DNA of 64,000 nt from an uncultured Spirochaetota bacterium (GTDB lineage: Bacteria > Spirochaetota > Spirochaetia > SZUA-6 > Fen-1364), in contig CAVUXE010000037.1 of assembly GCA_963745235.1 (NCBI GenBank), positions 188,646 to 252,645 on the forward strand, read 5' to 3'. Made by a program: the position numbers and the translations under genes. Below are positions 10,771 through 35,153 of the stretch, one piece after another (the first letter of the stretch is position 1; each line of letters starts with the position of its first letter). Under the pieces are notes generated by a model. That model saw nothing but the letters and a program-made list of their open reading frames with translations, did not search any database and had not been told where the DNA came from.

Positions 10771-11913
10771 TCACGAGCCTGCCGGTTGCGCTGCGGCGCG
10801 CTGCGGAACATGAACGCAGGCAGGGTCTTCCTGGTACGGGTCCTGGTACTCCGCATAGGCCCGTGATCGCGACCCGCCGCAGACATCAGCATATTCGCAG
10901 TCTCCGCATCTTCCCTTGAGAGCAGAAGGATTCCTGAGCCCGACCAGGAGGGGATGTGACGTGTAGATCGACTTCAAGCTTTCCCTCTGGACGTTTCCCA
11001 GGGGCACCGGCAGGAAGCCGCTTGGATATACCTCTCCGTCATGCCCAATGAAAACTATCCCTTTCCCGTCCCCCGTCCCGCTGAGCCTCACCACGGGAGG
11101 GTTCTTTGGCTCCCCCTCCAACTCGAGCAGCCTGGCCGCCAGGTGACCGTACAGCCTCCCTTTGGGCGCGTGCTGGCTTTTCTGGCGCTGCAGGAAGACG
11201 CGTCTGAAGTGGGGTCCTTCGGAAGTCCTTACCGGTATTCCGTACTGCGTGCAGTCATAGAGGAATTGGGCGGCTTCCTCGGACTCCCTGGGCTCGGGAT
11301 TCTCCAGTGCCGACCCTCGTCCCGTGCGGACAAGGAAAAACACCTCCCACGCAATTGCGCCCCTTTCCCTGATGAGATGGAAAATGTCGGCAAGCTCCCG
11401 GAGATTGCTTTTCATCACCGTTGTATTGACCTGTAGCCGCAGGCCGCATGATGAGGCCGCCCGGATTGCATCCAGGGTGGCCTGCCACGTCCCCGGGATA
11501 TCCCGTATCTTGTCATGAACCGCGGCGGTTGCCCCGTCCAGGCTGACCGAGACGACCTCCACACCGAGCTCTTTCATGCGCTCCAGCCGGTCCTTCCCAA
11601 GCAGGGGAGTAACGCTCGCGGCGACCGCCGTGTAGATGCCCTGGCCCACGGCGTGCTTGATCAGGTCAAACACATCCGGGCGCATGAGGGGATCACCGCC
11701 AGTCAGCAGGAGGGCGGGATAGGGCTCTCCGAACTCGAGAACCTGGTCGATCAGCCTCATTCCCATCTCGTGGTCGAGCTCGCCGGGGGCACTGCTCCTG
11801 ATGGCCGTGGCCCTGCAGTGTCGACAGGAAAGGAGACAGGATTTCGTCGTTTCCCAGCAGACGAAGATGGGCTTTTGCGTGAAGTCAATTTTCCTGGTCC
11901 AGGGGGGCTGCAT
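10771..11913 (-). CDS. Radical SAM/SPASM protein (NirJ/AhbD-related, TIGR04053-like)
   Basis: CLLSCRHC (CxxxCxxC), LTGGDPL, SLDG; C-terminal YPSGFL...CGDCEYADVCGGSRSRAY...DPAC. Confidence 0.85.
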   Translation of the reverse strand: MQPPWTRKIDFTQKPIFVCWETTKSCLLSCRHCRATAIRSSAPGELDHEMGMRLIDQVLEFGEPYPALLLTGGDPLMRPDVFDLIKHAVGQGIYTAVAASVTPLLGKDRLERMKELGVEVVSVSLDGATAAVHDKIRDIPGTWQATLDAIRAASSCGLRLQVNTTVMKSNLRELADIFHLIRERGAIAWEVFFLVRTGRGSALENPEPRESEEAAQFLYDCTQYGIPVRTSEGPHFRRVFLQRQKSQHAPKGRLYGHLAARLLELEGEPKNPPVVRLSGTGDGKGIVFIGHDGEVYPSGFLPVPLGNVQRESLKSIYTSHPLLVGLRNPSALKGRCGDCEYADVCGGSRSRAYAEYQDPYQEDPACVHVPQRAAAQPAGS

Positions 11914-11935
11914 CCGGAGATCCTCCAGTGCCGCC

Positions 11936-11965
11936 AGTCTATTTTCAATCCGTACGCACTGTCAA
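11936..11965 (-). promoter_or_regulatory. Sigma70-type promoter of the radical SAM gene
   Basis: TTGACA-N18-TAGACT on the minus strand, followed by a GGAGG SD. Confidence 0.6.
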
Positions 11966-11978
11966 CGAACTCCGGGCC

Positions 11979-12615
11979 TCACGAGTGCTGCGCCAGCACC
12001 CCCAGCTTCAGGAGCCCGTCGTAGACGAACTGCACGGAAAGGCCGGTGAGGATGATCCCCATGATCCGCTCGATCACTGATACGCCGGTGCGTCCGAGCA
12101 CGCGCAGGAAGAACGAGCTCAGATTGCATTGTCACGCCGGCGATCACGAGGGCCAGCACGACGCTTCCGATCAGGACCGGCAGGATGAACCCCGGCGACT
12201 TGTCCTCGCTCACGTACAGGAGGATCGTGGTGATGGTCCCGGGGCCGGCGAGCATGGGGATGGCCAGCGGAAAGATGGAGACGTCCTCACGCTCTTCGCC
12301 GTGCTCCTCTCCTGACGTCTTGGTCCGCCCCGGCTTGCCCAGGAGCAGGTCGATGGACACGATGAACATCAGGATTCCGCCTGCTATGAAGAACGATCCC
12401 GGCTGGATGCCGAGGAATCGAAGGATGGCGTTTCCCGTGAAGATGAAGACGCACAGCACGGCAAACGCAACCACGACCGCGCGGCGGATGGTGAGACGCT
12501 TTTTTCGAGCAGGGAAGTCCGCGGTAAGGGCAATGAATACGGGGACCACCCCGAAGGGGTCCACCACGATGAAAACCGCCAGGAATATGGTTACGACCTG
12601 ACTCGCAAGGGACAT
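11979..12615 (-). CDS. MarC-family membrane protein; apparent +1 frameshift near 12125
   Basis: IVVDPFGVVPVF and FPLAIPMLAGPGTI motifs. The corrected C-terminus reads LRVLGRTGVSVIERIMGIILTGLSVQF. Confidence 0.88.
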
Positions 12616-12730
12616 CGCCCGGACTGTAGCACGCTCCCGCTGCGGGGGAAATGGGGGTTGCAAATCCACAGGCGCTGATGGGACAGTTCAGGACCGCGAC
12701 GCCCGGCCTATCGCGGATTCCGCAACAGGT

Positions 12731-14340
12731 TCAAAAGACCCGATAGACGAACTCTCCGCCGACCATTGTTGCGCCCACCGCGGCCCGGTGAATCTCTTCC
12801 GCCGGGATAACGAAGATATCCTTTTCCAGTATCGTGAGGTCCGCGAGCTTCCCCGGCGCAATGGAGCCCAGCTCCGCCTCCCTGCCCGGCCGCATATGCG
12901 GCGCCCCGCGTGTACCCGTGCAATGCCTGCTCCACGCTCAGTCTCTGGGCGGGCCGCCAGCCCTCTGGTCCCGGGCTCCCGTCTGCCCGGCGACGCGTGA
13001 CTGCCGCATGGATGCCCGCCAGCGGGTCAGGGACCTCCACGGGACAGTCGGACCCGAAGGCCAGGCGCGCGCCGTTGTCCAGGAGAGCCTTCCATGCGTA
13101 CGCGGTTTCGCATCGAGATCCCCAGTGACGCTCCGCGATGAGCATGTCCGATGTTGCGTGAAGGGGCTGCATGGACGCTATGACCGAAAGACGAGCAAAC
13201 CGGGGGAGGTCATCCGGGTGCAGGAGCTGGGCGTGCTCGATGCGGTTCCTGATGGCGCTCCCGCTTTCCGACTCGGGACCCCGGCGTGCTGCGGCGCGCC
13301 CGTACGCGTTCAGCACCACGTGGCACGCGGCGTCTCCGATGGCATGAACGGCGCACGCCAGCCCTGCCGCGTTGGCGCGAAGGATGTCTTCGAAGAGCTG
13401 CTCCTCGCCCAGCGTCGGGATGCCGGTCGACCAGCTGCCCTCGTAGGGAGCGATCATCCAGGCCGTCTGCGGCCCCAAGGCGCCATCCGCAAACATCTTC
13501 ACGGCCCCCAGGCGCAGCATGTCATCACCGAAGCCCGTGCGGATCCCGAGCGCGATCGCTTGAGAAAGCATCTCATGGGGAATGCCCTTGACCACGCGCA
13601 GGGAAAGCTCACCGGCCGCGCGCAGCTCCTGCAAGGCCTCGAAGGCAAGCACCCTGTCGAAGTCATGTATTCCCGTGAGCCCCCGGCGGTGAGCCTCGGT
13701 TTGAGCCCGGCGCATCATGCGGGCCAGCTCGCCGGCGGACGGACGGGGGATGACGGCCTGCACGAGCCGCATGGCGTTTTCCAGCAGTATTCCCGAGGGC
13801 ACGCCGGTCCCGTCGTGAACAATCTTGCCGCCCTCCGGGTCAGCCGTGTCCAGGCGTATCCCCGCCTTCTGGAGGGCCAGCGAATTGACCCACAGCGCGT
13901 GCCCGCTCTTTGCCTCCAGCATCACGGGGTTGCGGGGGGCGGCCTCGTCCAGGGAGAGCCTGTCAGGGAGCCCGCCGGTCCCCCAGACGTTGTGGTTCCA
14001 TCCTGATCCCGTGATCCACGTCCCCGGCTTGAGCTCCGCTGCCCGCGTGCGCACCCGGGCGAGGGCCTCCGACAGGGTGGCGGTCTCCGCGTCGACTCCC
14101 TCCAGGGATTGGGCGTACCACATGAAGTGCAGGTGGCTGTCCGTCAGGCCCGGCAGCGCGCACCGGCCTCCGAGGTCGACCTCCTGCACGAGGCCCGTTC
14201 CCGCAAGGGCGGAGCGCGCGCCGGCTTCATCCCCGACATGAAGGAAGCGGCCGTCGCGGATTGCCACGGCCGAGGCCGTCAGGCGCACGAGGCTCCATGG
14301 TGTGGAAGGCACCATTGAAAAGAAGGAGGTTTCTGCTCAC
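12731..14340 (-). CDS. Amidohydrolase_3-family (YtcJ-like) metallohydrolase; apparent +1 frameshifts near 14280 and 12880
   Basis: PGLTDSHLH, KMFADGALG, HAIGD, RIEHAQ and FGSDCPV motifs. Corrected ends are MSRNLLLFNGAFHTM and GSIAPGKLADLTIL. Confidence 0.87.
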
Positions 14341-14358
14341 GGAGGGAAGCGCTTCGAC

Positions 14359-15471
14359 CTACAGCGGGTATTCGTAGACCCGGTACTTGCGGTAGGCCTT
14401 GCCTCCCAGCTTCAATGCCGTGTTGGTCATGTTCACGTTGTCCTCTTCCACCCAGGACATCTCAGCGGACACGTACCCCTTGGGGACTCCGTTCTTGTAG
14501 CTGTAGTAATAGAAGGCAAGGTCGATTCCCCGGTTCCTGTGATCCTTGAGAACCCCCATGCTGATGGTGCGCACGAGGGGGGTCTTCTTCTTGGCCGTGA
14601 GCAGGTGGAAGATCCCGAAGGGCAGGAGATGGCCGTGGGCGGCCTTGAACCCGACATTGAAGTCCGGCATGGTCAGCGACACGCCCACGGGCTTTCCGTC
14701 GACTTCCGCAAAGAACACGAGGTCCGGATCAACGGCCATCTTCAGGTCATTCGCCATGAGCTCGATCTCCGCCGGGGTCATGGGAGTAAACACCGCGTTG
14801 ATCTGCTCGAACTGGTTGTACAGCTCGTTGAAGCGCTTGATCTCGTTGTTGTAGTCCTTCATGTTCAGCGTGCGGAGCTTGAATCCCCCCTTCGCCTCCA
14901 CCCGCGGCATTATCTTGGCCAGACGCTCAGGGATCTCGGGGTTGTCCATCAGCCAGGCAACGAGGTCCTTCCATTTGCGGTTTCCGTAGTTCTGGATGAG
15001 GCGGTCGTAGTATGTGGGGTTGTATGGCATGAGGAGGACGGGAGAGCCCTCGAAACCCTCTATCTGGCAGCCGATCAGGTCGTTCGCGTTCGGAGACATG
15101 GGCCCGATGATGCGGACGCATCCCCGCTTGCGCGCCCAGTCGAACGCCGCCTCGAAGAGAGCCTTGGCCACCTCGGGATCATCCACGCACTCGAACCATC
15201 CCCAGTAGGCAGCCTTCTCATGGTGGGTCTTTTCCCAGATGGAGTCATGGATTGCCGCGATCCTGCCGACCACGGCGCCGTCCCTGCGGGCCAGGAAGAA
15301 CTCTGCCTCCGCGTGCTGGTAGAAGGGATGCTTCTTGCGGTTGACTTTCTTGTAATCGTCCATGAGGAGCGCGGGGACCCAGTTCTTGTCGTTCTTGTAC
15401 AGGGCGTAGGGGAACTTTATGAACTCCCGTGTCTGCTTTTTCGTGACGACATGCTCGACAGTGACTGCCAT
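14359..15471 (-). CDS. Tandem GNAT-fold N-acetyltransferase-like protein (YghO-like)
   Basis: FIKFPYALY...WVP, VGRIAA, WGWFEC, MPYNPTYY, MGVLKDHRNRGID and AEMSWVEEDN motifs. Confidence 0.75.
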   Translation of the reverse strand: MAVTVEHVVTKKQTREFIKFPYALYKNDKNWVPALLMDDYKKVNRKKHPFYQHAEAEFFLARRDGAVVGRIAAIHDSIWEKTHHEKAAYWGWFECVDDPEVAKALFEAAFDWARKRGCVRIIGPMSPNANDLIGCQIEGFEGSPVLLMPYNPTYYDRLIQNYGNRKWKDLVAWLMDNPEIPERLAKIMPRVEAKGGFKLRTLNMKDYNNEIKRFNELYNQFEQINAVFTPMTPAEIELMANDLKMAVDPDLVFFAEVDGKPVGVSLTMPDFNVGFKAAHGHLLPFGIFHLLTAKKKTPLVRTISMGVLKDHRNRGIDLAFYYYSYKNGVPKGYVSAEMSWVEEDNVNMTNTALKLGGKAYRKYRVYEYPL

Positions 15472-15507
15472 GGGCGCGCCTCTCTTCGCAGATGGATGAT
15501 ATGTGCT

Positions 15508-15536
15508 ACAGTAGGACGTGTTCATCGCCCTGTCAA
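15508..15536 (-). promoter_or_regulatory. Sigma70-type promoter of the GNAT-amidohydrolase pair
   Basis: TTGACA-N17-TACTGT on the minus strand. Confidence 0.6.
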
Positions 15537-15645
15537 GTGAGCGCGTGTGGCGGAGTGTGGCGGAGGCACAGCGGGCGCAGTCGAGGTGAGCTTTTCGCCA
15601 TGATATATGTTGGGTGCGGAAAAAGTATTGTGTACAATGAAGGCA

Positions 15646-16476
15646 ATGGAAATCGGTAAGGGCGAATCAAAAAGGCAGGTCAAGAAACGACCCCGGGGGA
15701 GTCTGCCGCCGGCCCGGGGCAGGTGGGAGGGACGGAGGCTCCCCAGTCCGCGCGCGTTCTTCTGGATACTCGCGGCCGGGACCATCGTCCTTGCTGGGCT
15801 CCTCGGGCTTGCCTTCAGCGCACTCGCGTTCGGCGGCCTGCGCCCGGAGTTTCTCCTGGGGTGGCTGGTGGTCGCCGGCGTGACGGCGGCGGCGGCTTCC
15901 CTGGCGGCGGCCGGCCTGCTCGGGCTCGCGCTGGAAAGACAGAAGAGCCTGGAGCATTTTGCAACGGTGGACGAGCTGACGGGCGCCCCCAACAGGAGGA
16001 TCTTCGCCGCCCAGCTGGACAGCGAGGTGGACAGGTGCAGCCGCCTGGCAAGCGCGCTGTGCGTGGTGTTCATCGACATCGACTTCTTCAAGCGGATCAA
16101 CGATGACTACGGCCACCAGGTCGGGGATGGCGTGCTGAAAGAGATCTATGCCCGCCTGGAAGAGAACCTTCGCCTGTACGACTTCATCGGACGGCTGGGC
16201 GGGGACGAGTTCGTCATGGCCCTTCCGGGAACGGACGCGCAGACCGCTTTTGGGGTGGCGGAGCGTCTCCGGGAATCCGTTCAGAACGACGCCGTGAGAG
16301 ACCTGCCCCGGGTCACCGTCAGCCTTGGGGTGGCTGAGCTTGCCCCGGGCATGAGCGCTGACCAGCTTGTGCGCTGCGCGGATATGGCGTTGTACACGGC
16401 AAAGAACAACGGAAGAAACAGGACGGAAATCTACCAGCCGGCCCCCGCGGCCGGTCACTCCCCGTCGCAGATGTAG
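15646..16476 (+). CDS. Membrane-anchored diguanylate cyclase (two TM helices plus GGDEF)
   Basis: Two hydrophobic helices, then DELTGAPNRR, DIDFFKRINDDYGH and RLYDFIGRLGGDEF. Confidence 0.9.
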   Translation: MEIGKGESKRQVKKRPRGSLPPARGRWEGRRLPSPRAFFWILAAGTIVLAGLLGLAFSALAFGGLRPEFLLGWLVVAGVTAAAASLAAAGLLGLALERQKSLEHFATVDELTGAPNRRIFAAQLDSEVDRCSRLASALCVVFIDIDFFKRINDDYGHQVGDGVLKEIYARLEENLRLYDFIGRLGGDEFVMALPGTDAQTAFGVAERLRESVQNDAVRDLPRVTVSLGVAELAPGMSADQLVRCADMALYTAKNNGRNRTEIYQPAPAAGHSPSQM

Positions 16477-16766
16477 CCGTTCTTCTCCAGGTATTCGAAG
16501 ACCAGCGCCACGATCTTCTCCCGCCGGGCCAGGGGAATCATTATGTCGAGGTTGGCCAGGGAATCCAGGGCGTTGACGCAGGTGTAGTAGCTGATCTCGC
16601 TCTCCGGCGCGTTCCAGATTTCGCCAATGATCCTGTCGATTTCGTCCGAAATGAAATCAGGCAGGGGAAAGCCAAGACGCGGCACGACATACTGCCATAC
16701 CTTCGCCGCATCGATATTGGCCGAGTTGCCGCGCCTGCCCCTGTGGAAATGCAAGATGCGCGCCAT
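16455..16766 (-). CDS. Hypothetical helical protein, 103 aa
   Basis: Protein-like composition and a GGGGGA SD-like sequence upstream; no family recognised. Confidence 0.6.
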   Translation of the reverse strand: MARILHFHRGRRGNSANIDAAKVWQYVVPRLGFPLPDFISDEIDRIIGEIWNAPESEISYYTCVNALDSLANLDIMIPLARREKIVALVFEYLEKNGYICDGE

Positions 16767-16856: not shown

Positions 16857-17600
16857 CTACTTCCCGCGCCTGAGCACCTGCGGCACCGATGTGCCTGCCA
16901 GGTTCGCGTTGGCCTTCGCATAGTCCGCGGCGGTGAGCCCGGCGGCGGACTTCAGGCTTCGGTCCGCGCCCGCAATCAGGAGCGCTGAGACGACCTCCGG
17001 GCTCGTCGTGTACTGGGCCGCGTACATGAGGGCCGTTTTCCCCCCGGGGCCGCGCTCATTCACGCGGGCGCCTGCTGCCACGAGGGTGGAAATCATGTGC
17101 CTGTCTTCGTTGAGCATGGCGGCGAGCATCAACGGCGTCATACCATCCGAGTTGCGCGCGTTGACATCAGCGCCTTTGGACAACAGGAGAGCGGCCACCC
17201 GGGGATTGGAGTTGTGCGCCGCAGCCGCCATGAGCGGCGTCTCTCCTTCCTTCGATGCCGCGTCCACCGACGCCCCGGCGGAGAGAAGGGCAGAGACGAC
17301 CTCCGGTCGGGTGTTGGAGCGGCCGGCGAGCAGGAGGGCTGACTGGCCCTTGCCGTCCGACTCATTCACCCTTGCCCCCGCCGCAACGAGGGCGGAGATC
17401 ACGCGGGGGTCCATGGTGAGCCCGGCGGCATGCATGAGAGGCGTCCACCCGTTTGCGTCCTTCTGGTTGGCGCCCGCACCCTGGGCAAGGGCGGCCCGCA
17501 GCTGGGCAGGCGTGCCATGCTCCGCAAGGCTGAAGATGTCGTCCGCGGCCAGTGCTGCGACAGGGAGCAGCAGGATCATTATCACTACCGCTTTTTTCAT
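16857..17600 (-). CDS. Secreted ankyrin-repeat protein
   Basis: Signal peptide MKKAVVIMILLLPVAALA; about five GxTPLMxAA...LLxxGAxVN repeats; GGAGGGGG SD. Confidence 0.88.
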   Translation of the reverse strand: MKKAVVIMILLLPVAALAADDIFSLAEHGTPAQLRAALAQGAGANQKDANGWTPLMHAAGLTMDPRVISALVAAGARVNESDGKGQSALLLAGRSNTRPEVVSALLSAGASVDAASKEGETPLMAAAAHNSNPRVAALLLSKGADVNARNSDGMTPLMLAAMLNEDRHMISTLVAAGARVNERGPGGKTALMYAAQYTTSPEVVSALLIAGADRSLKSAAGLTAADYAKANANLAGTSVPQVLRRGK

Positions 17601-17693
17601 TCCCCCTCCACGCACCACGAAGAAAGTATACTGCATCCCGGCTCGCATCGCCATGCACCGCTCGTCTCGATTCTTTGATTATATTAGGAACCG

Positions 17694-18446
17694 ATGAGAG
17701 GCCAGGATCAGCTGCTGGGAAGCCGCACGCGCGTCGCCTCCCGCTATGCAGTCCTTCCCCGGGAGGGCATCCCGTTCTCCCGGCTGCCCGAGTGGCCGCA
17801 GGCGCAGGTGCGCGTGCTCGCCGGACCGGCGTTAGGCGCCGGCTTTGTCGAATACCTCCTGGACCTCGCGGCCGGGGGCTCCGGCGCGCACGCGGCGGAC
17901 CAGCGGATAGAGTTCTTCCTCTACGTCCTTTCCGGAGGGGTGACACTGAGCATGGACGGCCGCCACCATGACCTGGCCGCGGGGGGGTACGCTTTCATCT
18001 CACCGACAAGCGACTTCCGGGCGCTGGCCCGGGACGCGACGAGCCTCCTCATGCTGCGAAAACAATACCAGGAGGCCGCCGGGGTTGCTCCGTGCTCGAG
18101 CTTCGTGGGCAACCAGGCGGAGGTCCCTTCCTCGGTCTACTACGGTGACCCGGGCGCCCGGCTGCAGGAGCTGATCCCGAACGATCTGTCCTTCGACATG
18201 GCCATGAACATCTTCACCTTCGACACAGGCCACAGCCTTCCGGTGACGGAGACGCACGTGATGGAGCACGGATTGTACATGCTCCAGGGGAAGGGCGTGT
18301 ATTACCTGGGGGATTCATGGATGGAAGTGGAGGCCACTGACTTCATCTGGATGGGACCTTTCTGCCCGCAGAGCTACTACGCGACCGGCCCCGTGGCCTC
18401 CCGGTACATCTACTACAAGAACGTGAACAGAGAGATTCCGTTGTAA
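17694..18446 (+). CDS. allE: (S)-ureidoglycine aminohydrolase (bicupin)
   Basis: ETHVMEHGLYMLQGKGVYYL, DFIWMGPFCPQ and YIYYKNVNR motifs; first gene of the ureide operon. Confidence 0.93.
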   Translation: MRGQDQLLGSRTRVASRYAVLPREGIPFSRLPEWPQAQVRVLAGPALGAGFVEYLLDLAAGGSGAHAADQRIEFFLYVLSGGVTLSMDGRHHDLAAGGYAFISPTSDFRALARDATSLLMLRKQYQEAAGVAPCSSFVGNQAEVPSSVYYGDPGARLQELIPNDLSFDMAMNIFTFDTGHSLPVTETHVMEHGLYMLQGKGVYYLGDSWMEVEATDFIWMGPFCPQSYYATGPVASRYIYYKNVNREIPL

Positions 18447-18456
18447 AGGGGACCCC

Positions 18457-19437
18457 ATGGAAAAGATCTATCGCGATGCCGACGTTGACATGAGCATCCT
18501 GAAGAACAAGACCATTGCCGTGATCGGCTACGGGATCCAGGGCAAGGTGCAGGCAGCCAACGCCCGGGACAGCGGCTGCACCGTGATCGTCGGCACGAGG
18601 CCGCCGGAGCACAGCCCGTCTCGAGGGCAGGCACAGGCGGACGGGTTTCCGGCAATGAGCGTCGCGGAGGCGAGCAGGAAGGCGGACATCCTGCTCATCG
18701 AGCTGGCAGACCCTGCCCAGCCCGCGGTCTACTCCTCGGATATCGCCCCGCACCTGCGCGCCGGCCAGACCTTGTGCTTCTGCCATGGCTTCAACGTCCT
18801 CTACGGCGCCATCCGGCCCCCGGAGAACGTGAACACGGTGCTCTTCGTGCCCAACGCGCCCGGGGCTTTCGTACGGGAGAAGTACAAGAAGGGTGAAGGC
18901 GTCTACGGGTGCGTCAGCGTCGAGCACGACGCCACGGGGGATGCCCGGCAGATCGTCCTGGCAATTGCCAAGGCCGTCGGTTCCACGCGCGCGGGCGTCG
19001 TGGAGCTTTCGTTCCAGCACGAGACCGAGGGGGACAACTTCGAGGAGCAGATCCTGTACGGCGGGGCCATCCACCTCATGAGGCTGTGCTTCCAGGTCAT
19101 GGTGGACAATGGCTACCCCCCGAGCTTCGCCTACGCGAAGGCGGTGCGCTCGCTGCGCAGCGTCCTGGATGTCATGGATGAGAACGGGATTGAGAGCTAC
19201 CTGACCACCCGCAGCAGCCGCACCTGCGAGTTCGCCGTGCGCACCCGGGGCCCGCGCGTCATCAACGAGGAAGCCGTGCGGCAGATCTTCCAGGAAACGG
19301 AGAAGGGGCTCTTCGCGCGGGACTGGATGCAGGAATGGGCGCTGGGAATGCCGCAGCTCCACCGGCTGCGCAGGACGGCCGCTGAGAGCGCAATGGAAAA
19401 AACGGGGACCCAATGGCGCAGGGATTTCGGGAAATGA
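18457..19437 (+). CDS. Ketol-acid reductoisomerase (class I IlvC)-like oxidoreductase with a divergent active site
   Basis: IAVIGYGIQG Rossmann motif, HGFN and ETEGDNFEEQ are present, but canonical AYFECLHE reads AYAKAVRS. Embedded in the purine catabolic operon. Confidence 0.85.
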   Translation: MEKIYRDADVDMSILKNKTIAVIGYGIQGKVQAANARDSGCTVIVGTRPPEHSPSRGQAQADGFPAMSVAEASRKADILLIELADPAQPAVYSSDIAPHLRAGQTLCFCHGFNVLYGAIRPPENVNTVLFVPNAPGAFVREKYKKGEGVYGCVSVEHDATGDARQIVLAIAKAVGSTRAGVVELSFQHETEGDNFEEQILYGGAIHLMRLCFQVMVDNGYPPSFAYAKAVRSLRSVLDVMDENGIESYLTTRSSRTCEFAVRTRGPRVINEEAVRQIFQETEKGLFARDWMQEWALGMPQLHRLRRTAAESAMEKTGTQWRRDFGK

Positions 19438-20666
19438 CCTCCTCGGCGCCCGCCGTGGACGGCAGGCGCATTGCCCGGGACATCGAGACGATTGGCGGCT
19501 TCACTGAACAGGACCCGAAGATCGGCCACAGCCGGCCCACTTTTTCTCCCGCGTGGAGAAAGGCGCGTGACTACGCGGCGCGGGAAGCCGAGGCGGCCGG
19601 CTGCGTGGCGCGGGTGGATGCCGCGGGCAATCTCCATGCCCGTCCCGCCGGGCTGGATTGGGAAACCCCCGCATGGCTGTGCGGCTCGCACGTGGACTCT
19701 GTCCCGACGGGCGGCAAGTACGATGGCGTGGTGGGCGTGGCGGTCGCCCTGGAGGTGCTTCGCGCGGTTCCGCGAGCGGCCGTCGAGCTGATCGTGTTCG
19801 CCGAGGAGGAAGGCACCACCTTCAGCCTCGGCATGCTGGGAAGCCGAGCCTGGGTGGGGACGCTGGGGCCGTCGGAGCTTCGCTCCCTTCGCAACGCGGA
19901 GGGAAAGGACTACCTCAGCGCCGGGGCGGACCACGGCGTGGACATCGGCCGGCTGGAAGCCGAGCGGTTTCCGGCCGAAAGGTACCGCGGGCTGGTGGAA
20001 GTGCACGTGGAGCAGGGGCCATCCCTCTGGAAATCAGGGGAGCCCCTGGCCGTGGTGACGGCCATCAACGGTCGCCGCCAGTACCTGTGCACGCTCACGG
20101 GTGCCGCGAACCACGCGGGCTCGACGAAAATGGCGGACCGCAATGATGCCCTTGCGGGGGCGGCGCAGGGCATGACGTTCCTGGAGTCAGTGGGCCGTGA
20201 GCTGGACAGGGAGGCCGAGCACACGGTGATCACCGTCGGGCGGCTGGAGGTGCACCCGAATGCCCTCAATGTGATCCCCGGGCGCGTGCGGTTCAGCATC
20301 GACTTTCGCTCTCCGGTGGACGCCCTCCTCCAGAGCGGTGAGGAAAGGCTTCGGGCGCAGCTCCTGCAGATTGCCTCCGCCCGGGGGCTGGACATAGAGA
20401 TCGTGTGCACGGAGCAGCTTCCGGTCGTCCCCATGGACCGCAGGATGTGCGACATGCTCCGAGACGCGGCGCGGCGGCTGGACCTAAGGCTTCCCGACGT
20501 GAAAAGCGGCGCCCTTCACGACACCGCCATCGTGGCGCCTTTCCTCCCTTCGGTGATGCTCTTCGTGGCCAGCAGAGACGGGATCAGCCACAACCCGGCT
20601 GAGTTCAGCCGCATCGAGCACATTGCCCAGGCGGCAAGGGTCCTGGTGGAGGCCTTTCGCGCATGA
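19434..20666 (+). CDS. allC: Allantoate amidohydrolase (M20 Zn hydrolase, hydantoinase/carbamoylase family)
   Basis: GSHVDSVPTGGKYDG, EEEG, EVHVEQG, ANHAGST, SGALHD and GISHNPAE motifs; ATGA overlap with the upstream gene. Substrate inferred from context. Confidence 0.85.
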   Translation: MTSSAPAVDGRRIARDIETIGGFTEQDPKIGHSRPTFSPAWRKARDYAAREAEAAGCVARVDAAGNLHARPAGLDWETPAWLCGSHVDSVPTGGKYDGVVGVAVALEVLRAVPRAAVELIVFAEEEGTTFSLGMLGSRAWVGTLGPSELRSLRNAEGKDYLSAGADHGVDIGRLEAERFPAERYRGLVEVHVEQGPSLWKSGEPLAVVTAINGRRQYLCTLTGAANHAGSTKMADRNDALAGAAQGMTFLESVGRELDREAEHTVITVGRLEVHPNALNVIPGRVRFSIDFRSPVDALLQSGEERLRAQLLQIASARGLDIEIVCTEQLPVVPMDRRMCDMLRDAARRLDLRLPDVKSGALHDTAIVAPFLPSVMLFVASRDGISHNPAEFSRIEHIAQAARVLVEAFRA

Positions 20667-21187
20667 GCGGAGGACCCGTGGCTCTTGCGAAGCTCAACAC
20701 CGAGACCCTCGAGGGGTTCCTCAGCGCGTGCGGGTCGCTCTTCGAGCGCTCCCCCTGGGTTGCGGCGCGAACGTGGCGCCGCAGGCCCTTCGCGTCACTG
20801 GAGGCGCTTCACGGGGAGCTTGTGTCCACGATGGAGAACGCGTCCGCGGAGGAGAAGGTGTCTCTGATCCGCTCCCACCCCGACCTGGTCGGGCGCATTG
20901 CGGAGGCCGCGGGCTTGAGTGAAATATCCGCTCGGGAACAGGCCGCCGCGGGACTGGACTCCCTGTCAGCGGAGGAAGTCACGCTGTTCAGGGCCTACAA
21001 CAGGGAATATCGCGACACGTTCGGTTTCCCGTTCGTCATTTGCGCTCGGGAGAACAGGAAGGAGGCGATCCTGCGGGCTTTCCCCGAGCGGCTGGGCCAC
21101 ACGCGGGAGCAGGAGATCGTCGCCGCTCTCGCCGAGATCGCGAAGATCGCCTGGCTGCGCCTGCGGGACGCGGTCACGGAGGCTTAG
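20663..21187 (+). CDS. uraD: OHCU decarboxylase
   Basis: FERSPWVA, SHPDL, EQAAAGL, YRDTFGFPFVIC and EIAKIAWLRL motifs. Confidence 0.93.
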   Translation: MSGGPVALAKLNTETLEGFLSACGSLFERSPWVAARTWRRRPFASLEALHGELVSTMENASAEEKVSLIRSHPDLVGRIAEAAGLSEISAREQAAAGLDSLSAEEVTLFRAYNREYRDTFGFPFVICARENRKEAILRAFPERLGHTREQEIVAALAEIAKIAWLRLRDAVTEA

Positions 21188-22045
21188 ATGGTCCGACTCC
21201 AGGAAAACAGCTACGGCAAGAGCGACGTTCGGTTGACCAAGGTCGTCCGCAAAGGGGAGACGCACATCCTGCTTGAGCTCACGGTGCAGATCATGCTGGG
21301 CGGGTCGTTCGAGCGCATCTACACGGACGGAGACAATGCCTCCTGCATTCCGACCGATACAATGAAGAACACCGTCTACGCTCTGGCGCGGAAGAACGAC
21401 TTCGATTCCCCGGAAGCCTTTGGCGGAATCCTTGCCCGGCACTTCCTCCAGTTCGCGCAAGTGGCGTGGGCGGAGGTGACCATAGAGCAGGAGCCCTGGG
21501 TGCGCATCCCGGTGGACGGCTCGCCGCATCCCCACTCATTCACCCGCGGCGGAAGCTGCACCCGGCTGTGCACGGTGCGGCTGGACCGGGGCGGCGAGCC
21601 GGTGGTCAGCGGCGGCCTGAGGGGGCTGGAGGTCATCAAGACGACCAGATCCGGCTTCGCGGGATTCTTCAGGGACCCCTACACGACCCTTGCCGACACC
21701 ACGGACCGGATTTTCGCCACGCGGATAGATGCGACGTGGAAGTACGTTCCGGGCATTTCATCGTACGCGGAGGTCTTCGAGACGGCGCGCTCCGCGCTGC
21801 TGGAGGCGTTCGCCCGGCATGACAGCGCGAGCGTGCAGCAGACAATCTTTGCCATCGGGGAAGCGCTGCTGGAACGCCTGCCGCGGATCGCTTCCGTCAG
21901 CATCACGATGCCGAACCAGCACCGGCTCCTTGTGAACCTCAAGCAGTTCGACATGGACAATCCCAACGAGATCTTCGTGGCCACGCGCGAGCCGTACGGC
22001 CTCATCAAAGGGACAGTTGCGAGGGATGGAAAATGGGAAGGTTGA
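21188..22045 (+). CDS. pucL: Cofactor-independent urate oxidase (uricase)
   Basis: YGKSDV, IPTDTMKNTVY, KTTRSGF, SASVQQT, MPNQH and PYGLIKGTV motifs. Confidence 0.95.
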   Translation: MVRLQENSYGKSDVRLTKVVRKGETHILLELTVQIMLGGSFERIYTDGDNASCIPTDTMKNTVYALARKNDFDSPEAFGGILARHFLQFAQVAWAEVTIEQEPWVRIPVDGSPHPHSFTRGGSCTRLCTVRLDRGGEPVVSGGLRGLEVIKTTRSGFAGFFRDPYTTLADTTDRIFATRIDATWKYVPGISSYAEVFETARSALLEAFARHDSASVQQTIFAIGEALLERLPRIASVSITMPNQHRLLVNLKQFDMDNPNEIFVATREPYGLIKGTVARDGKWEG

Positions 22046-22380
22046 CGACTCATGTCCTTGATACGGCACGGGGCGTGCCGGCCCGCGGCATGCGGATCGA
22101 GCTTTTGCGGCAGGAGGACCCGGGGTCACCCCTCCTGAGCGCCTCGACGAACTCGGACGGCCGGACGGACTCCCCGCTTCTGGAAGGCCCCGGACTGAAG
22201 GCGGGCGCCTACCAGCTCGTTTTTCACGTCGGGGATTATTTTCGAAGCCGGGGCGATCCGGACGCGGGCCGTTTCCTCGAGGAGGTGCCCGTGGCGTTCG
22301 TTGTCGATGATCCAGCCGGGAAGTACCACGTGCCGCTCCTTGTCTCGCCGTGGTCCTATTCGACCTACCGAGGGAGCTGA
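22033..22380 (+). CDS. uraH: 5-hydroxyisourate hydrolase
   Basis: LTTHVLD, TNSDGR and YHVPLLVSPWSYSTYRGS with the C-terminal YRGS signature; no signal peptide. Confidence 0.96.
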   Translation: MGRLTTHVLDTARGVPARGMRIELLRQEDPGSPLLSASTNSDGRTDSPLLEGPGLKAGAYQLVFHVGDYFRSRGDPDAGRFLEEVPVAFVVDDPAGKYHVPLLVSPWSYSTYRGS

Positions 22381-22385
22381 GCCGG

Positions 22386-23732
22386 ATGACTCTTGATTGC
22401 CTCGTGAAGGGCGCCATGGTGGTGCGCGCATCCGGAGTGGAGCCGCTGTCCATCGGTATTGCAGACGGCCGGATTGCCGCTCTGGGACAGGAGATCTCCG
22501 AGCCGGCCCGGGAAACGATAGACGCCAGAGGCCTTCACGTCTTCCCCGGAGTGGTGGATGCACACGTGCATTTCAATGACCCGGGCCGCGATTCCTGGGA
22601 AGGTGTCCCCACGGGCTCAGCCGCCCTGTGCGCCGGGGGCGGCACGTGCTTCATCGACATGCCGCTCAACTCTTCCCCGCCGACCCTGGATGCCGCATCG
22701 TTCGACAGGAAGCTCGCGGCCTGCCGGGACCGCGCCTATGCTGATTTCGCCCTGTGGGGCGGGCTGACACCGGACAACCTCGATGAGCTGGAGGCGCTTG
22801 CGGAGCGCGGCGTGGTCGGTTTCAAGGCGTTCATGTCCGCAAGCGGGATAGATGATTTCCGCGCGTGCGACGACGAGGCCCTCTACAAGGGCATGAGAAT
22901 TGCCGCCCGCCTGGGCCTCCCCGTCGCTGTCCACGCGGAGAACAACGGGATGACGAGCGCTCTTTCCGAAATTGCGCGCTCGGCCGGCCGGACGTCTGCG
23001 CGGGACTACCTTGCCTCGCGCCCCATTGCGGCGGAGGCGGAGGCCGTCTCACGCGCGCTCGCGTTTGCGGAGGACACCGGCTGCGCGCTCCACGTGGTTC
23101 ACACCAGCTCCGCGCGGGGTGTGCAGCTGATCCGAAAGGCCGTCGAGGCGGGGCTGTGCGATGCGACCTGCGAGACGTGCCCTCATTATCTGCTGCTGTC
23201 GGATGAAGACGTGGAAAGGATGGGCGCCCGGGCGAAATGCGCGCCTCCCCTGCGCTCTGAGGCCGAGCGGAGGAAGCTTGTCCAGGAGGTCGCTGCCGGC
23301 CGGGTGGACACCATCGGCTCGGATCACTCCCCCTCGCCCGCGGAAATGAAGCAGGGACCTGACTTCTTCAGAGTCTGGGGAGGAATCAGCGGGGCGCAGG
23401 CGACCCTCCGCGCACTGCTGAGCCTGGATCTGCCCCTGCCCCTGGTGTCCACGCTGGTGTCAGACAACGTGGCCCGGCGCTTTCGGCTTCCGGGCAAGGG
23501 CGGAATCAGGCTGGGTGCGGATGCCGACCTGGCATTCGTCGACATCTCGGACTCGAAGCCGATGAGGGAGAGCGAGCTCCTGGACCGCCATCACCTCAGC
23601 CCGTACGTCGGACGCACGCTGTGCGGCTCCGTCCGTCGAACGATGCTCCGGGGAGAGACGGTATGTCTGGACGGCAAGATGGCGGGAAAGCCGCGGGGAA
23701 GGCACCTTCGACCCGAAGTTACCGAAATGTGA
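22386..23732 (+). CDS. allB: Allantoinase (metal-dependent)
   Basis: DAHVHFNDPGR, DMPLNSSPPT, GFKAFM, VHAEN, ETCPHYL, KCAPPLR, GSDHSP and WGGISG motifs. Confidence 0.93.
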   Translation: MTLDCLVKGAMVVRASGVEPLSIGIADGRIAALGQEISEPARETIDARGLHVFPGVVDAHVHFNDPGRDSWEGVPTGSAALCAGGGTCFIDMPLNSSPPTLDAASFDRKLAACRDRAYADFALWGGLTPDNLDELEALAERGVVGFKAFMSASGIDDFRACDDEALYKGMRIAARLGLPVAVHAENNGMTSALSEIARSAGRTSARDYLASRPIAAEAEAVSRALAFAEDTGCALHVVHTSSARGVQLIRKAVEAGLCDATCETCPHYLLLSDEDVERMGARAKCAPPLRSEAERRKLVQEVAAGRVDTIGSDHSPSPAEMKQGPDFFRVWGGISGAQATLRALLSLDLPLPLVSTLVSDNVARRFRLPGKGGIRLGADADLAFVDISDSKPMRESELLDRHHLSPYVGRTLCGSVRRTMLRGETVCLDGKMAGKPRGRHLRPEVTEM

Positions 23733-24017: not shown

Positions 24018-25514
24018 ATGATCGACTGGGTAGCTCTCACCATATTCATCTTCTTCTTCCTCCTCGTGACGGTGATCGGGTTCGTCGCGGCCCGGTGGCG
24101 CAGGGGGAACCTCAAGACGCTGGAGGAGTGGGGCCTGGCGGGCCGCAAGTTCGGCACCGTCATCACGTGGTTCCTGCTCGGCGGGGACATCTACACCGCC
24201 TACACGTTCGTGGCGGTCCCGGGGCTCGTATTCGCGGCAGGCGCCATGGGCTTTTTCGCCGTGCCCTATACGGTGCTCATCTACCCCCTTGCGTTCATCG
24301 TGCTGCCGAAGTTCTGGTCCGTGTGCAAGGCAAACGGCTACGTCACGCCGTCGGATTTCGTCGAAGGCCAGACGGGAAGCAAGACACTCGCGTTCATCAT
24401 CGCCCTCACCGGAATCGTGGCAACAATGCCCTACATCGCCTTGCAGATGTTCGGCATTGCCGTGTCGGTTGCCCAGATGGGGATCAATCCTGAGGTCGCA
24501 CTCGTTGTCGCGTTTGTCATCCTTGCCGCCTACACATACACAAGCGGCCTGCGCGCGCCTGCTCTCATTGCGATGGTCAAGGACGCGATGATCTTCATCG
24601 TGCTCTTTGCCACCATCATCGTGATCCCGATCTCACTCGGCGGATTCGGGCCGATCTTCCGGGCCGCGCAGGAGCACGCGGCGGGGACGCCTGCCTTCCA
24701 CTTCATCCTGGCCCCGGCCCAGTTCATGCCGTACGCCTCCCTGGTCCTGGGCTCTGCCCTGGCGCTGTTTCTCTATCCCCACGCCCTCACGGGCACTCTT
24801 GCAAGCGGCAGCCCCGAGGTGGTCAAGCGCAACGCGGCCTTGCTGCCGGCATACTCGCTTCTGCTGGGACTGCTCGCCCTGCTGGGATACATGGCAATTG
24901 CGGCCCATGTGACGCCCCCCAAGGCGTATGGGGCGAACGGGATCGTTCCCGCGTTGATTGCCAAGGAGTTTCCCTCCTGGTTCGCCGGTTTCTGCTTCGC
25001 GGCCATCTCTATCGGGGCAATGGTTCCCGCCTCCATCATGTCCATTGCGGCGGCCAATCTCTTCACGAGGAACATCTATCGTCCCTACCTCCGCCCCAAC
25101 TACTCGAGCGGAGAAGAGACAAACGTCGCCCGGGTGGCGTCGCTGGTGGTGAAGTTGGGCGCGCTGCTGTTCATCTTCTTCGTGCCGACGACCTTCATCA
25201 TCAACCTGCAGCTCCTGGGCGGCATCATCATCATCCAGACCCTGCCGTCGGTCTTCCTGGGGCTGTTCACGAAGTGGTTCAACAAGTGGGCACTCGTGGT
25301 GGGATGGGCGGCGGGCATCGCGAGCGGCATCTCGATGTTTGCCGCGGCGCACAACAGCTCCGTGTACACGTTCGTGATAGCCGGTCACGGCCTGGGGATC
25401 TACTCGGCACTGTCGTCTTTCGTCATCAACCTGGCAGTGACAGCACTTCTCACGCCCGTGTTCCAGGTTGCGCAGATACGGCAGCGGCGGAATGCCGCGA
25501 AGGCGGAGGCGTAG
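24018..25514 (+). CDS. Sodium:solute symporter (MctP/YhjB-like)
   Basis: EWGLAGRKFG, WFLLGGDIYTAYTF, YTYTSGLRAPA and AANLFTRNIY motifs; about 13 TM helices. Confidence 0.92.
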   Translation: MIDWVALTIFIFFFLLVTVIGFVAARWRRGNLKTLEEWGLAGRKFGTVITWFLLGGDIYTAYTFVAVPGLVFAAGAMGFFAVPYTVLIYPLAFIVLPKFWSVCKANGYVTPSDFVEGQTGSKTLAFIIALTGIVATMPYIALQMFGIAVSVAQMGINPEVALVVAFVILAAYTYTSGLRAPALIAMVKDAMIFIVLFATIIVIPISLGGFGPIFRAAQEHAAGTPAFHFILAPAQFMPYASLVLGSALALFLYPHALTGTLASGSPEVVKRNAALLPAYSLLLGLLALLGYMAIAAHVTPPKAYGANGIVPALIAKEFPSWFAGFCFAAISIGAMVPASIMSIAAANLFTRNIYRPYLRPNYSSGEETNVARVASLVVKLGALLFIFFVPTTFIINLQLLGGIIIIQTLPSVFLGLFTKWFNKWALVVGWAAGIASGISMFAAAHNSSVYTFVIAGHGLGIYSALSSFVINLAVTALLTPVFQVAQIRQRRNAAKAEA

Positions 25515-30800: not shown

Positions 30801-31678
30801 AGCTTGGCATTCCCGCCTCCAGCGTGCGCGTGATGCCGACCAGCACCGACAAGGTGCCCAACACCTCGGCAACCGCTGCATCCTCGGGGTCGGACCTGAA
30901 CGGTGCAGCGGTCAGGGCAGCCTGCGCGACCCTCCGCGAGCGGCTGGCGCCCGTTGCCGCGGGGATGCTGGCCCGCACAGCAGGCGCCCAGGTTCCACCA
31001 GGGAGCGTGGTATTCAGCGACGGCTGCGCTCACGCGGGTCAGGGAGGAGGCACTGGTGCGCGGCTCAGCTTTGCAGAGGTCTGCCAGGAGGCGTACCGAC
31101 AGCGGATCAGCCTTTCGACAACCGGATACTATGCGACGCCGGGAATCACCTGGAACTGGGAAAAGCAGGAAGGCCACCCCTTCTACTATTTCGCCTGCGG
31201 CGCGGCGGTGAGCGAGGTGGAAGTGGATGGCTACACCGGGATGCACCGGGTGCTTCGAACGGACATCGTGCACGACGTGGGTGAATCCCTGAACCCCGGC
31301 GTGGACCGGGGCCAGATCGAGGGAGGGTTCGTGCAGGGGGTTGGCTGGCTCACCAGGGAGGAGCTGGCATGGGACAAGGAAGGTCGGCTCCTGACTCACG
31401 GCGCGAGCACCTACCAGATCCCCGCCATCAGCGACGCACCCCTGGAGATGCGCATCACGATGCTGCCCAACGCGGCCCAGCATGGCACCATTCACGGAAG
31501 CAAGGCAGTCGGGGAGCCGCCGCTGATGCTCGCCTTTTCGGTTCGGGAGGCAATCCGTGACGCAGTTGCAGCCTTCGGCAGGCCTGGCGGTGAGATAGGA
31601 CTTGCGGCGCCATCAACGTCTGAGGCCATTTTCGCTGCAATTGAGGCGCGCAGGAACGGCCAGAACAGCCTCGGCTGA
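27815..31678 (+). CDS. xdhAB: Single-chain xanthine dehydrogenase (XdhA 2Fe-2S/FAD fused to XdhB molybdopterin subunit)
   Basis: GTKCGCAEGDCGACTV, QCGYCTPG, NLCRCTGY, FAD motif IRNRATMGGNLATASPIGD, GQEHFYLE, GGAFGGKE, TAFRGFGGPQG and SKAVGEPP, all in one 1287-aa ORF. Confidence 0.94.
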   Translation: MKSPRGLTRTRKKAAASAPTPASFTVVINGKPVVVEDIAPTTTLLEYLRTHGYTGTKCGCAEGDCGACTVALVDRDAAGKPTYRAFNSCIALLPMFAGREIVTVEGLATGEKLHPVQAHMVEKYGSQCGYCTPGFVVSLFEAYYREDCHDASQLSDQLSGNLCRCTGYRPIRDAALAALGQRDAENGKPDPFRARLGSPVEPISFLDYSARGERFLRPATLDDLFALLQEHPEARLVAGATEIGVDINKKFLPCPLLISTEGVPELTRIWSTPLEWHVGAAATLTAIEELLGAEYPSLAKMLRVFASRGIRNRATMGGNLATASPIGDSAPVLLTLDARLVLASAAGERTAAMDEFSLGYRKTDLRAGEIIREIVIPRISGAQGAARKAEFIKVSKRRELDISIVAGAFRVDLAPDGRVHEARIAFGGVALATRRARKAEAALEGRTIAEAREAVAAALAGEYQPIDDVRGSAAYRRGLIVSLWEKFASGEKSIAVDGSLEFAAGNSPAVADASRSLHHESARGHVSGAAQYVDDLAQRRPMLEAWPVCSKHARARITRRNADTARSAPGVVAVLMAEDIPGHNNVGTSRNDEPLFASEEVLYHGQLIALVVGTSLKECRAAAGLVEVDYEPLQPVLGIKDAIARGSFLTEPHTIRRGDCEKALSFAPHHLEGEVSSGGQEHFYLETHAAWAEAGEKGTLFVCSSTQHPSEIQAILSELLHAPRNSIVVQSPRMGGAFGGKEVQGNTFAALVALAAVRTGKPVRMQLDRDLDIMISGKRHPFWSKFSAGYDDQGKVLAVRVDIFSDGGWSLDLSQPIIDRAVFHLDNIYYLPAVAFTGRVVRTNTTSHTAFRGFGGPQGMLVIEEIMDRVARRLGLPPEVVRERNMYHGSGETNTTHYGEDIGDNRLQTMWKQAFDQAGFRERRLEIDAWNRQHDRVKRGLAITGEKFGISFTLAAYNQAGALVLIYQDGTVQVNHGGTEMGQGLHTKVLGVVMRELGIPASSVRVMPTSTDKVPNTSATAASSGSDLNGAAVRAACATLRERLAPVAAGMLARTAGAQVPPGSVVFSDGCAHAGQGGGTGARLSFAEVCQEAYRQRISLSTTGYYATPGITWNWEKQEGHPFYYFACGAAVSEVEVDGYTGMHRVLRTDIVHDVGESLNPGVDRGQIEGGFVQGVGWLTREELAWDKEGRLLTHGASTYQIPAISDAPLEMRITMLPNAAQHGTIHGSKAVGEPPLMLAFSVREAIRDAVAAFGRPGGEIGLAAPSTSEAIFAAIEARRNGQNSLG

Positions 31679-35113: not shown

Positions 35114-35153
35114 GTTGGAAAAGAGCTCTTCAGCAAACGAAAGGCGTCAAAGC

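Follow-up and report, generated by a model that had tools for sequence, protein, structure and literature searches.

A ketol-acid reductoisomerase paralogue in a purine-catabolic operon of uncultured bacteria, a probable oxidoreductase of the ureide pathway

Why does a gene resembling ketol-acid reductoisomerase (KARI), an enzyme of branched-chain amino-acid synthesis, lie in the middle of an operon for purine breakdown? The question arises from a 64,000-nucleotide stretch of DNA (the window) of an uncultured Spirochaetota bacterium (GenBank assembly GCA_963745235.1, contig CAVUXE010000037.1; C37:188646-252645 in our numbering), whose genome is 85.7% complete with 5.9% contamination. At positions 18457-19437 of the window, a gene that we call X encodes a 326-amino-acid (aa) protein matching the Pfam families KARI_N (residues 14-180, 186 bits) and KARI_C (residues 186-322, 98 bits). 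We conclude that X is very probably a dedicated oxidoreductase of the AllC/AllE branch of the ureide pathway, a neofunctionalised paralogue of class I KARI and not a KARI. The assignment to the ureide pathway is made because of the fixed place of X in the operon, its conservation, its co-occurrence with allE and the absence of AllD, of AllA apart from weak matches and, in most carriers, of urease.

X has the two-domain fold of class I KARI (IlvC, EC 1.1.1.86), known from Methanothermococcus thermolithotrophicus (7Q03 and 7Q07, 42% identical to X) and Ignisphaera aggregans (5E4R), and phmmer matches it to class I KARI structures with an E-value of 1e-78. An alignment-based AlphaFold2 (AF2) model of X reached a predicted local distance difference test (pLDDT) score of 96.8, against 47.3 for single-sequence AF2, and superimposed on class I KARI structures with a TM-score of 0.95 and a root mean square deviation of 1.2-1.4 Å; for 7Q03 and 7Q07 the deviation was 1.3-1.4 Å. 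Like these enzymes, X keeps the GxGxxG motif, H110, E189, D193, E197 and S254. Unlike them, it carries K228, S232 and N133 and lies in a purine-catabolic operon rather than in a branched-chain amino-acid context.

All of the motifs quoted in a first-pass annotation of this DNA were present in the protein: GYGIQG, HGF (H110), VPNAPG (N133), DNFEEQ (D193 and E197), AYAKAVRS (K228 and S232) and SRTCEFA. The alignment comprised the window protein and 78 full-length relatives from 80 loci, hence 79 clade sequences, as well as the genome's own IlvC. The canonical residues G24, G26, G29, H110, E189, D193, E197, S254 and E258 were kept in 79/79 sequences. Equally invariant were I27, N133, A134, G192, N194, E196, Y201, A227 and K228, together with R231, S232, R234, R255, A260, R262 and R264. 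Because N133, K228, S232 and the other changes are invariant across 79 relatives, they do not stem from sequencing errors, as the first-pass annotation had argued from a single sequence.

Aligned with the KARI of Staphylococcus aureus (SaKARI), the family has K228 for E226, S232 for E230 and N133 for K130, the lysine of the APKGPG loop that we take to be catalytic (79/79). The binuclear Mg site of four acidic ligands (SaKARI D190, E194, E226 and E230) is incomplete in X, where D193 and E197 are the only two left. In published work, D190 and E194 are described as coordinating the two Mg ions, and E230, a glutamate called highly conserved, as a ligand of Mg(II) that also forms hydrogen bonds with transition-state analogues. 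S251 is reported to bind ligands, and L233, L237 and S249 to line the pocket; by alignment, S251 is retained as S254, and the other three correspond to S235, V239 and R252. Several positions that are hydrophobic in canonical KARIs are polar or cationic in X (N194, E196, S235, R252 and R255), and with A227 in place of a phenylalanine the pocket appears enlarged. By its aligned residues, X thus retains one metal site together with the nucleotide site, has a lysine in place of the second metal site and has an alkyl pocket turned polar and cationic.

Profile models gave a divided picture. X passed the NCBIfam ilvC model TIGR00465 (277.8 bits, above 226.15) and fell below NF004017 (322.2 against 336) and NF009940 (250 against 406). 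The D-2-hydroxyacid dehydrogenase family PF02826 matched the Rossmann part only, at 21.7 bits and below its gathering threshold of 25.1.

X is not the ilvC gene of its organism, because a second KARI gene on contig C53 (C53:140208-141167) has every canonical motif: GYGSQG, APKGPG, DLFGEQ, AYFECIHE and SDTAEYG. Its product is 38% identical to X. The presence of a canonical ilvC elsewhere in the genome, posed as a check on the first-pass reading, is thereby confirmed.

A search of 5.8 billion proteins with X returned 120 clusters among the matches listed, at 79-98% identity, and every cluster with a source name was labelled ketol-acid reductoisomerase; in the ESM Atlas, X likewise found KARI clusters only. 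Among representatives at 50% identity, the matches were fragments of the clade, then one sequence 50% identical to X (P0123), then canonical KARIs at no more than 45%. A search started from P0123 led to a wider family with the same signature, with the source names Aggregatilinea lenta, Wukongibacter baidiensis, Ranarchaeia and Bathyarchaeia. Related sequences carry source names from Chloroflexota, Clostridia and Archaea, and two sources name cultivated species as carriers of the family. For P0123 itself, the gene context sought in a single metagenome scan came to one unrelated match of 27%. Plasmid sequences gave 56 matches to X, which were set aside as canonical ilvC because all were below 60% identity.

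From 351 sequences (350 identifiers plus the own IlvC), 301 of 300-365 aa without the residue letter X were retained, and the full signature N133, N194, K228, S232 and R255 was found in 195 of these 301. A FastTree phylogeny of 149 rows (43 sampled family members, 6 K228 sequences missing part of the signature and 100 others) placed all K228 sequences on one side of a branch with a support of 100. The family formed a 45-row group (support 99), which also takes in an S133 variant and an aberrant row of 300 aa. In a short IQ-TREE analysis of 63 rows, the SH-aLRT value was 99 for the branch of the family and 100 for that of the K228 group; the roots of both trees are arbitrary. The group with the AYAK motif, for which a phylogeny had been called for, is therefore monophyletic with supports of 99-100 in both trees. 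Between canonical KARIs and the family branch the Bathyarchaeia-type sequences (E133, K228, E232) and P0123 (E133, K228, G232), and these intermediates suggest a stepwise remodelling of the active site.

Two further departures from the canonical pattern came up in the same sequences. A separate clade of 17 KARI-like representatives (P0148, P0167, P0168, P0170, P0178 and others) mostly has N-R-M where X has I27, N133 and A134, with E..S for the second glutamate pair; by its residues it would be another non-canonical KARI lineage. One sequence, P0132, combines S-P-N-A-P-G with a V..E pair.

The gene order around X is nearly fixed. A contig scan of genomes found 204 relatives of X, of which the best 80, 76-93% identical, were kept; their records are labelled Spirochaetota, Planctomycetota (Tepidisphaerales, Pirellulales and Phycisphaerae) and Verrucomicrobiota. 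An allE gene lies upstream on the same strand in 69/70 loci with at least 900 nucleotides (nt) of upstream sequence (the exception is L054), and allC lies downstream in 69/70 loci with at least 1500 nt of downstream sequence (the exception is L040). The proposed linkage of X to ureide genes thus extends well beyond the window. Where contigs allow, the order allE-X-allC-uraD-uox-hiuH-allB recurs across the three phyla; in the two Verrucomicrobiota loci where the urate genes were found (L067 and L075), they lie upstream instead. X is the most conserved gene of the operon: its median identity to the window copy is 79%, as opposed to 60% for allE, 54% for allC, 57% for uraD, 48% for uox, 62% for hiuH and 55% for allB. 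De novo clustering of flanking open reading frames (ORFs) added a guanine-deaminase-like gene, XdhA/B, adenine deaminase and XdhC as further conserved neighbours.

X also comes and goes with allE. In the order to which the window belongs, X was found in 11/92 genomes, all of one genus (11/21 of that genus), and allE was found in the same 11 genomes and in one more, where it is split by a frameshift. In this last genome, from the same genus (G415:C6:396510-397200), allE is broken into two adjacent pieces that cover positions 2-134 and 134-235 of the profile, and a search for a KARI-like gene at E-values up to 1e-110 found none; it looks like a decaying copy of the operon. Among 300 sampled Planctomycetota genomes other than G010, neither X nor allE was found. 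Thus, allE hardly occurs without X in the samples searched, and the operon behaves like a unit with a patchy distribution. X is inherited with allE and not with the species tree. The labels of the carrier records, all metagenome-assembled genomes (MAGs), point to peat, soil and lakes.

In the window, the genes for purine breakdown are the following (all on the + strand).

17694-18446, +: allE, (S)-ureidoglycine aminohydrolase, a bicupin (TIGR03214, 276 bits, cut-off 200)
18457-19437, +: X, KARI-like oxidoreductase, the subject of this report (class I KARI fold; N133/K228/S232 for K/E/E; D193, E197, H110 and S254 retained)
19434-20666, +: AllC-type ureide amidohydrolase of a variant subtype (TIGR01879, 315 bits; G-R-x-Q as opposed to G-Q-R-R in E. 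coli AllC; Gly383 kept)
20663-21187, +: OHCU decarboxylase, uraD (PF09349, 152 bits; TIGR03164, 180 bits)
21188-22045, +: cofactor-independent urate oxidase, uox (TIGR03383, 323 bits)
22033-22380, +: 5-hydroxyisourate hydrolase, hiuH, transthyretin-like (PF00576, 121.5 bits)
22350-23732, +: allantoinase, allB (TIGR03178, 528 bits, cut-off 358; start uncertain, the profile match beginning at ORF residue 13-16)
24018-25514, +: MctP-type monocarboxylate permease (NF046076, 675 bits, cut-off 625; found after allB in the closest relatives L003 and L005 only)
27815-31678, +: xanthine dehydrogenase, a single fused chain of 1287 aa with 2Fe-2S, FAD and molybdenum-cofactor domains (by domain matches)

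The seven genes from allE to allB are packed head to tail across 17694-23732. The TAA stop codon of allE ends at 18446, and the ATG of X follows at 18457 behind AGGGG, a gap of 10 nt; the TGA stop of X (19435-19437) overlaps the ATG of allC at 19434 as ATGA. Both features had been read from the sequence at first pass, and the coordinates bear them out. So do the profile matches for the claim that the locus encodes every step from xanthine to (S)-ureidoglycolate, as fused xanthine dehydrogenase, uricase, 5-hydroxyisourate hydrolase, OHCU decarboxylase, allantoinase, the AllC-type enzyme and AllE were all recognised. The statement that ilvB, ilvN and ilvD are lacking nearby holds in part: no thiamine diphosphate (ThDP) enzyme of the IlvB/Gcl type matched in the window, and ilvD was not searched for. 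The spirochaete loci L007, L008, L010, L014 and L041 share the fused xanthine dehydrogenase (73-77% identity across about 3.7 kb), whereas L017 and other Planctomycetota loci have separate XdhA-like and XdhB-like genes.

The AllC-type protein scored below every NCBIfam allantoate-amidohydrolase equivalog cut-off. Its G-R-x-Q motif (residues 213-216) is invariant in 67/67 AllCs of the operon, and the glycine typical of allantoate amidohydrolase (AAH), residue 383, is kept. The QXR motif of E. coli AllC is said in the literature to hold the second ureido group of allantoate. The operon AllC may represent a distinct specificity subtype that co-evolves with X. One peat metatranscriptome run, in which 0.06 of the sampled words were present, contained a single 194-nt contig matching inside allC (20024-20217); X had no match in that run, a result that shows neither expression nor silence.

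We next asked what the carriers of X lack, using 50 genomes, or 51 with the window's own. All are MAGs of unknown or partial completeness, so that an absence below means not found, and related carriers are not independent samples. The ureidoglycolate lyase family PF04115 (AllA) matched in 8/50 carriers, all Spirochaetota, at 27-51 bits; the three best AllA-like matches reached 31-42 bits, where the NCBIfam lyase models have cut-offs of 160-275. Members of the Ldh_2 family are present in 35/50 carriers and were considered as candidates for AllD, but none exceeded the AllD equivalog cut-off (0/51; best 308 against 496). The window's own genome has no PF04115 match and no Ldh_2 match. The absence of AllA and AllD, which had been noted for the locus, is thus matched in the genomes: there is no AllD equivalog in 51 carriers, and the AllA-like matches in 8/50 are weak, the three that were checked being far below cut-off. 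A second ureide amidohydrolase had also been noted as lacking at the locus; in the genomes, 28/51 carriers have one AllC-family gene and 23/51 have two or more. Urease alpha was found in 6/51 carriers and allophanate hydrolase above cut-off in 6/51, which together make 8/51. With urea unusable for most carriers, hydrolysis must release ammonia from the second ureido group, and the co-located AllC is the sole candidate for this step in 28/51 genomes.

Which reaction, then, does X catalyze? Our best single guess, held tentatively, is the oxidation of (S)-ureidoglycolate to oxalurate. Ureidoglycolate is favoured as the substrate because X directly follows allE, whose product is (S)-ureidoglycolate, and because the known ureidoglycolate-consuming enzymes were not found in carriers, weak AllA-like matches apart. 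It is favoured also because E. coli has a parallel arrangement, with allD, allC and allE adjacent on one strand, and because the pocket of X is, by alignment, polar and cationic. Two chemical points favour it as well. N-substituted oxamates such as IpOHA bind KARI tightly, and oxalurate is N-carbamoyl-oxamate; a structure labelled "hydroxyoxamate inhibitor" was among the structural matches of the X model. The KARI product (2R)-2,3-dihydroxyisovalerate and (S)-ureidoglycolate presumably have the same spatial arrangement at C2 in spite of their R and S labels, because the Cahn-Ingold-Prelog priorities of the carboxyl group and the third substituent swap.

In mechanistic terms, X would no longer isomerise acetolactate; it would be a simple 2-hydroxyacid/2-oxoacid oxidoreductase that uses NAD(P) and takes an intermediate of the ureide branch as its substrate. 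If that intermediate is the (S)-ureidoglycolate made by AllE, its oxidation to oxalurate would make X a non-homologous replacement of AllD. The carboxylate and C2 hydroxyl of the substrate would sit on the remaining Mg, K228, in place of a Mg(II), would act as the base, and hydride would pass from ureidoglycolate to NAD(P)+. In the window's organism, a carbamate-kinase-like gene and the AllF/AllG/AllH-like genes of contig C62 could together dispose of the oxalurate. The variant AllC encoded next to X may be the sink in Planctomycetota and Verrucomicrobiota.

In the genome of this spirochaete, FdrA-like, AllG and AllH family genes form a cluster on C62 (L094, C62:30001-50000, 6996-16516), and between them stand a cyclase-family gene, a thiolase-like gene and an NCS2 nucleobase permease. 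Contig C3 has another FdrA-AllG pair (L095, 8925-11756), which adjoins a PnrA-like binding protein, and a carbamate-kinase-like match was found on C29. By their gene content, the C62 and C3 clusters are possible oxamate-carbamoyltransferase-like systems.

Several observations weigh against oxalurate as the product. AllG, an oxamate carbamoyltransferase subunit, was found in 12/16 Spirochaetota carriers and in 0/34 of the others. Carbamate kinase was found in 0/5 Planctomycetota carriers, each of which has exactly two genes of the ornithine/aspartate transcarbamylase (OTC/ATC) family. Oxalurate would therefore have no known sink there. Within the order, AllG also occurs in 16/81 genomes lacking X, and within the genus its enrichment is mild, 6/11 genomes with X as opposed to 2/10 without, these related genomes not being independent. 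All conserved neighbours in the 80 loci serve upstream purine steps, and none of them would process oxalurate or oxamate. R48, S53 and S55 of X resemble the NADPH-type loop of reductive KARIs, which would fit a reductase too; the loop's arginine is described as a cofactor discriminator of KARI. In addition, the pocket assignments come from alignment to SaKARI positions and not from a ligand-bound model, and the gene contexts cover the 76-93% identical subclade of the family. A link of X to oxamate carbamoyltransferase (OXTCase) was tried from the AllG distribution, found to be weak and rejected. The first-pass annotation had read X as a repurposed KARI that makes oxalurate. Its first half, a neofunctionalised paralogue tied to allE and allC, stands; the product is not established, because AllG is absent from 34/34 non-spirochaete carriers.

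Two coherent schemes for the end of the pathway follow. In one, ureidoglycolate is oxidised and oxalurate then hydrolysed, which remains our tentative preference; in the other, ureidoglycolate is hydrolysed and glyoxylate then reduced, which we regard as doubtful. A specific form of the former, in which AllC with the G-R-x-Q motif cleaves oxalurate to oxamate, CO2 and NH3, would give purine catabolism an end free of both urea and transcarbamylase. We consider this form unlikely as it stands. It would explain the non-spirochaete carriers without AllA, AllD, AllFGH, carbamate kinase and, mostly, urease, and it would also explain the frequency of a single AllC-family gene and the joint travel of allE, X and allC.

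The scheme with glyoxylate as the substrate deserves a closer look. Here X would be a reductase of glyoxylate or another small 2-oxoacid; a single AllC would hydrolyse both allantoate and ureidoglycolate, in the manner of ureidoglycolate amidohydrolase (UAH), releasing all four nitrogens as ammonia, and X would reduce the toxic glyoxylate to glycolate with NADPH. The NADPH-type loop of R48, S53 and S55 agrees with such a role. So does the lack of a canonical outlet for glyoxylate in five well-assembled carriers, of which one has malate synthase and none a Gcl equivalog (best score 333 bits, cut-off 711). The 43/51 carriers with neither urease nor allophanate hydrolase need a hydrolysis that frees ammonia from the second ureido group, 28/51 have one AllC-family gene with its substrate motif altered, and canonical KARI is described as promiscuous toward 2-oxoacids. 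However, the enlarged polar and cationic pocket predicted from the alignment is a better match for a sizeable polar substrate than for one of two carbons, and a review describes AAH and UAH as strictly specific. X also directly follows allE, as allD lies beside allC and allE in E. coli, and the conversion of glyoxylate to glycolate recovers no carbon. We rate glyoxylate reduction as the main rival, a doubtful, if coherent, account of X. Some other redox or redox-assisted ureide reaction seems less probable again. X could, for example, deaminate (S)-ureidoglycine oxidatively to oxalurate with NAD(P)+, or a ureidoglycolate alkoxide could collapse, with C-N cleavage rather than alkyl migration, after which the bound glyoxylate would be reduced. 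Reactions of this kind are compatible with the close operon linkage of X to allE and allC, with the retention of one metal site and the nucleotide site alongside replacement of isomerase-specific residues, and with the published view that canonical KARI starts by deprotonating the C2 hydroxyl. They have no precedent, though; AllE is always present, which makes a second ureidoglycine route seem redundant, and a lyase step would yield urea, unusable by 43/51 carriers.

Hydroxypyruvate is a good substrate of KARI, which lends something to the suggestion that X is the tartronate-semialdehyde/hydroxypyruvate reductase of a glycerate pathway after glyoxylate; ApnO, a protein of KARI-like fold, is likewise described as reducing hydroxypyruvate and oxomalonate. 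The first-pass annotation listed this among its alternatives, but we judge it very unlikely because a Gcl equivalog was found in 0/5 carriers (the best score being the 333 bits given above). The ThDP paralogues of the own genome are only about 33-34% identical, and gcl, hyi and glxK are not among the genes conserved across the 80 loci. Most improbable of all is an ordinary second KARI, for branched-chain amino-acid or pantoate synthesis, that sits in the operon by chance. Its case consists of the TIGR00465 score of 277.8 bits, above cut-off, and of the protein-database source names, all of which read ketol-acid reductoisomerase. It is contradicted by the replacement of Mg(II) ligands and the loop lysine in 79/79 sequences, the score below the NF004017 cut-off (322 against 336), the canonical ilvC elsewhere in the genome, the inheritance of X with allE and the separate clade with supports of 99-100.

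The preferred reading of X as an oxidoreductase acting after AllE has partial parallels among known systems. Class I KARI is the nearest family, though X lacks two of its defining features. By analogy, a functional counterpart would be AllD, the (S)-ureidoglycolate dehydrogenase of E. coli, which shares the company of allC and allE and the proposed NAD(P)-linked step after AllE. AllD is described as preferring NAD+ and has an Ldh_2 fold as opposed to the KARI fold of X, so that, if the reaction is the same, X would be an analogue and not a member of that family. BurG of Burkholderia, a cyclopropanol-forming KARI homologue (PDB 7PCC and 7PCO), is described as a KARI-family paralogue recruited to a pathway outside branched-chain amino-acid synthesis. 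BurG differs in serving secondary metabolism with other chemistry, and X matches it more weakly than it matches canonical KARIs (E-value of 6e-48 as opposed to 1e-78). ApnO (D-apionate oxidoisomerase) is reported to have a KARI-like fold and to use NAD+ in oxidising a 2-hydroxy acid, the site involved being a homologue of metal site I of KARI. Unlike KARI paralogues, it is described as about 15% identical to KARI, undetectable by BLAST and with a convergently acquired second metal site. PanG and ApnO had been offered as precedents for the repurposing of KARI, but neither fits exactly: the literature assigns PanG to the orthologous group of PanE, and ApnO has, at about 15% identity, the fold alone in common with KARI. 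BurG is the better precedent. In the literature searched, we found no description of a KARI-type enzyme in ureide catabolism; papers beyond the searched library may exist.

The rest of the window contains several features of its own. Just 5' of allE, a divergent gene on the minus strand (16857-17654) encodes an ankyrin-repeat protein; its position is kept in the closest relatives L003, L004, L005 and L012, along with a GGDEF protein and an Amidohydro_3 gene. Between 39363 and 46515 lie PreT/PreA-like dihydropyrimidine dehydrogenase genes and a dihydropyrimidinase-like amidohydrolase, followed by an extracytoplasmic-function (ECF)-type sigma factor and an ammonium transporter. The PreT/PreA-like genes and the ammonium transporter therefore place the purine operon within a wider nitrogen-scavenging neighbourhood. 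At 35085-37462, metE is apparently split: a 627-aa ORF contains Meth_synt_1 and Meth_synt_2 profile positions 1-128, and an overlapping 165-aa ORF contains positions 250-323. The split may reflect a frameshift, a deletion or an assembly error. A 1866-aa ORF at 5170-10770 has several ABC-ATPase and UvrA-specific domains and thus corresponds to a double-length UvrA-like protein.

Since X passes TIGR00465 and its relatives are named ketol-acid reductoisomerase, automated annotation keeps assigning it to branched-chain amino-acid synthesis. Yet the evidence puts X in a mobile purine/ureide operon, of which it is the most conserved gene, in MAGs of Spirochaetota, Planctomycetota and Verrucomicrobiota. 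As a case of enzyme evolution, it would combine the loss of one metal site, the gain of a lysine at a former metal-ligand position and the disappearance of the loop lysine with stepwise archaeal intermediates. The AllD paper describes a coupled assay of AAH and (S)-ureidoglycine aminohydrolase (UGlyAH) for the oxidation of (S)-ureidoglycolate, and with this established assay the prediction for X is directly testable. X is a concrete candidate for the missing step after ureidoglycolate wherever AllC and AllE occur without AllA, AllD and UAH, and reconstructions of the nitrogen cycle for the carrier groups would change.

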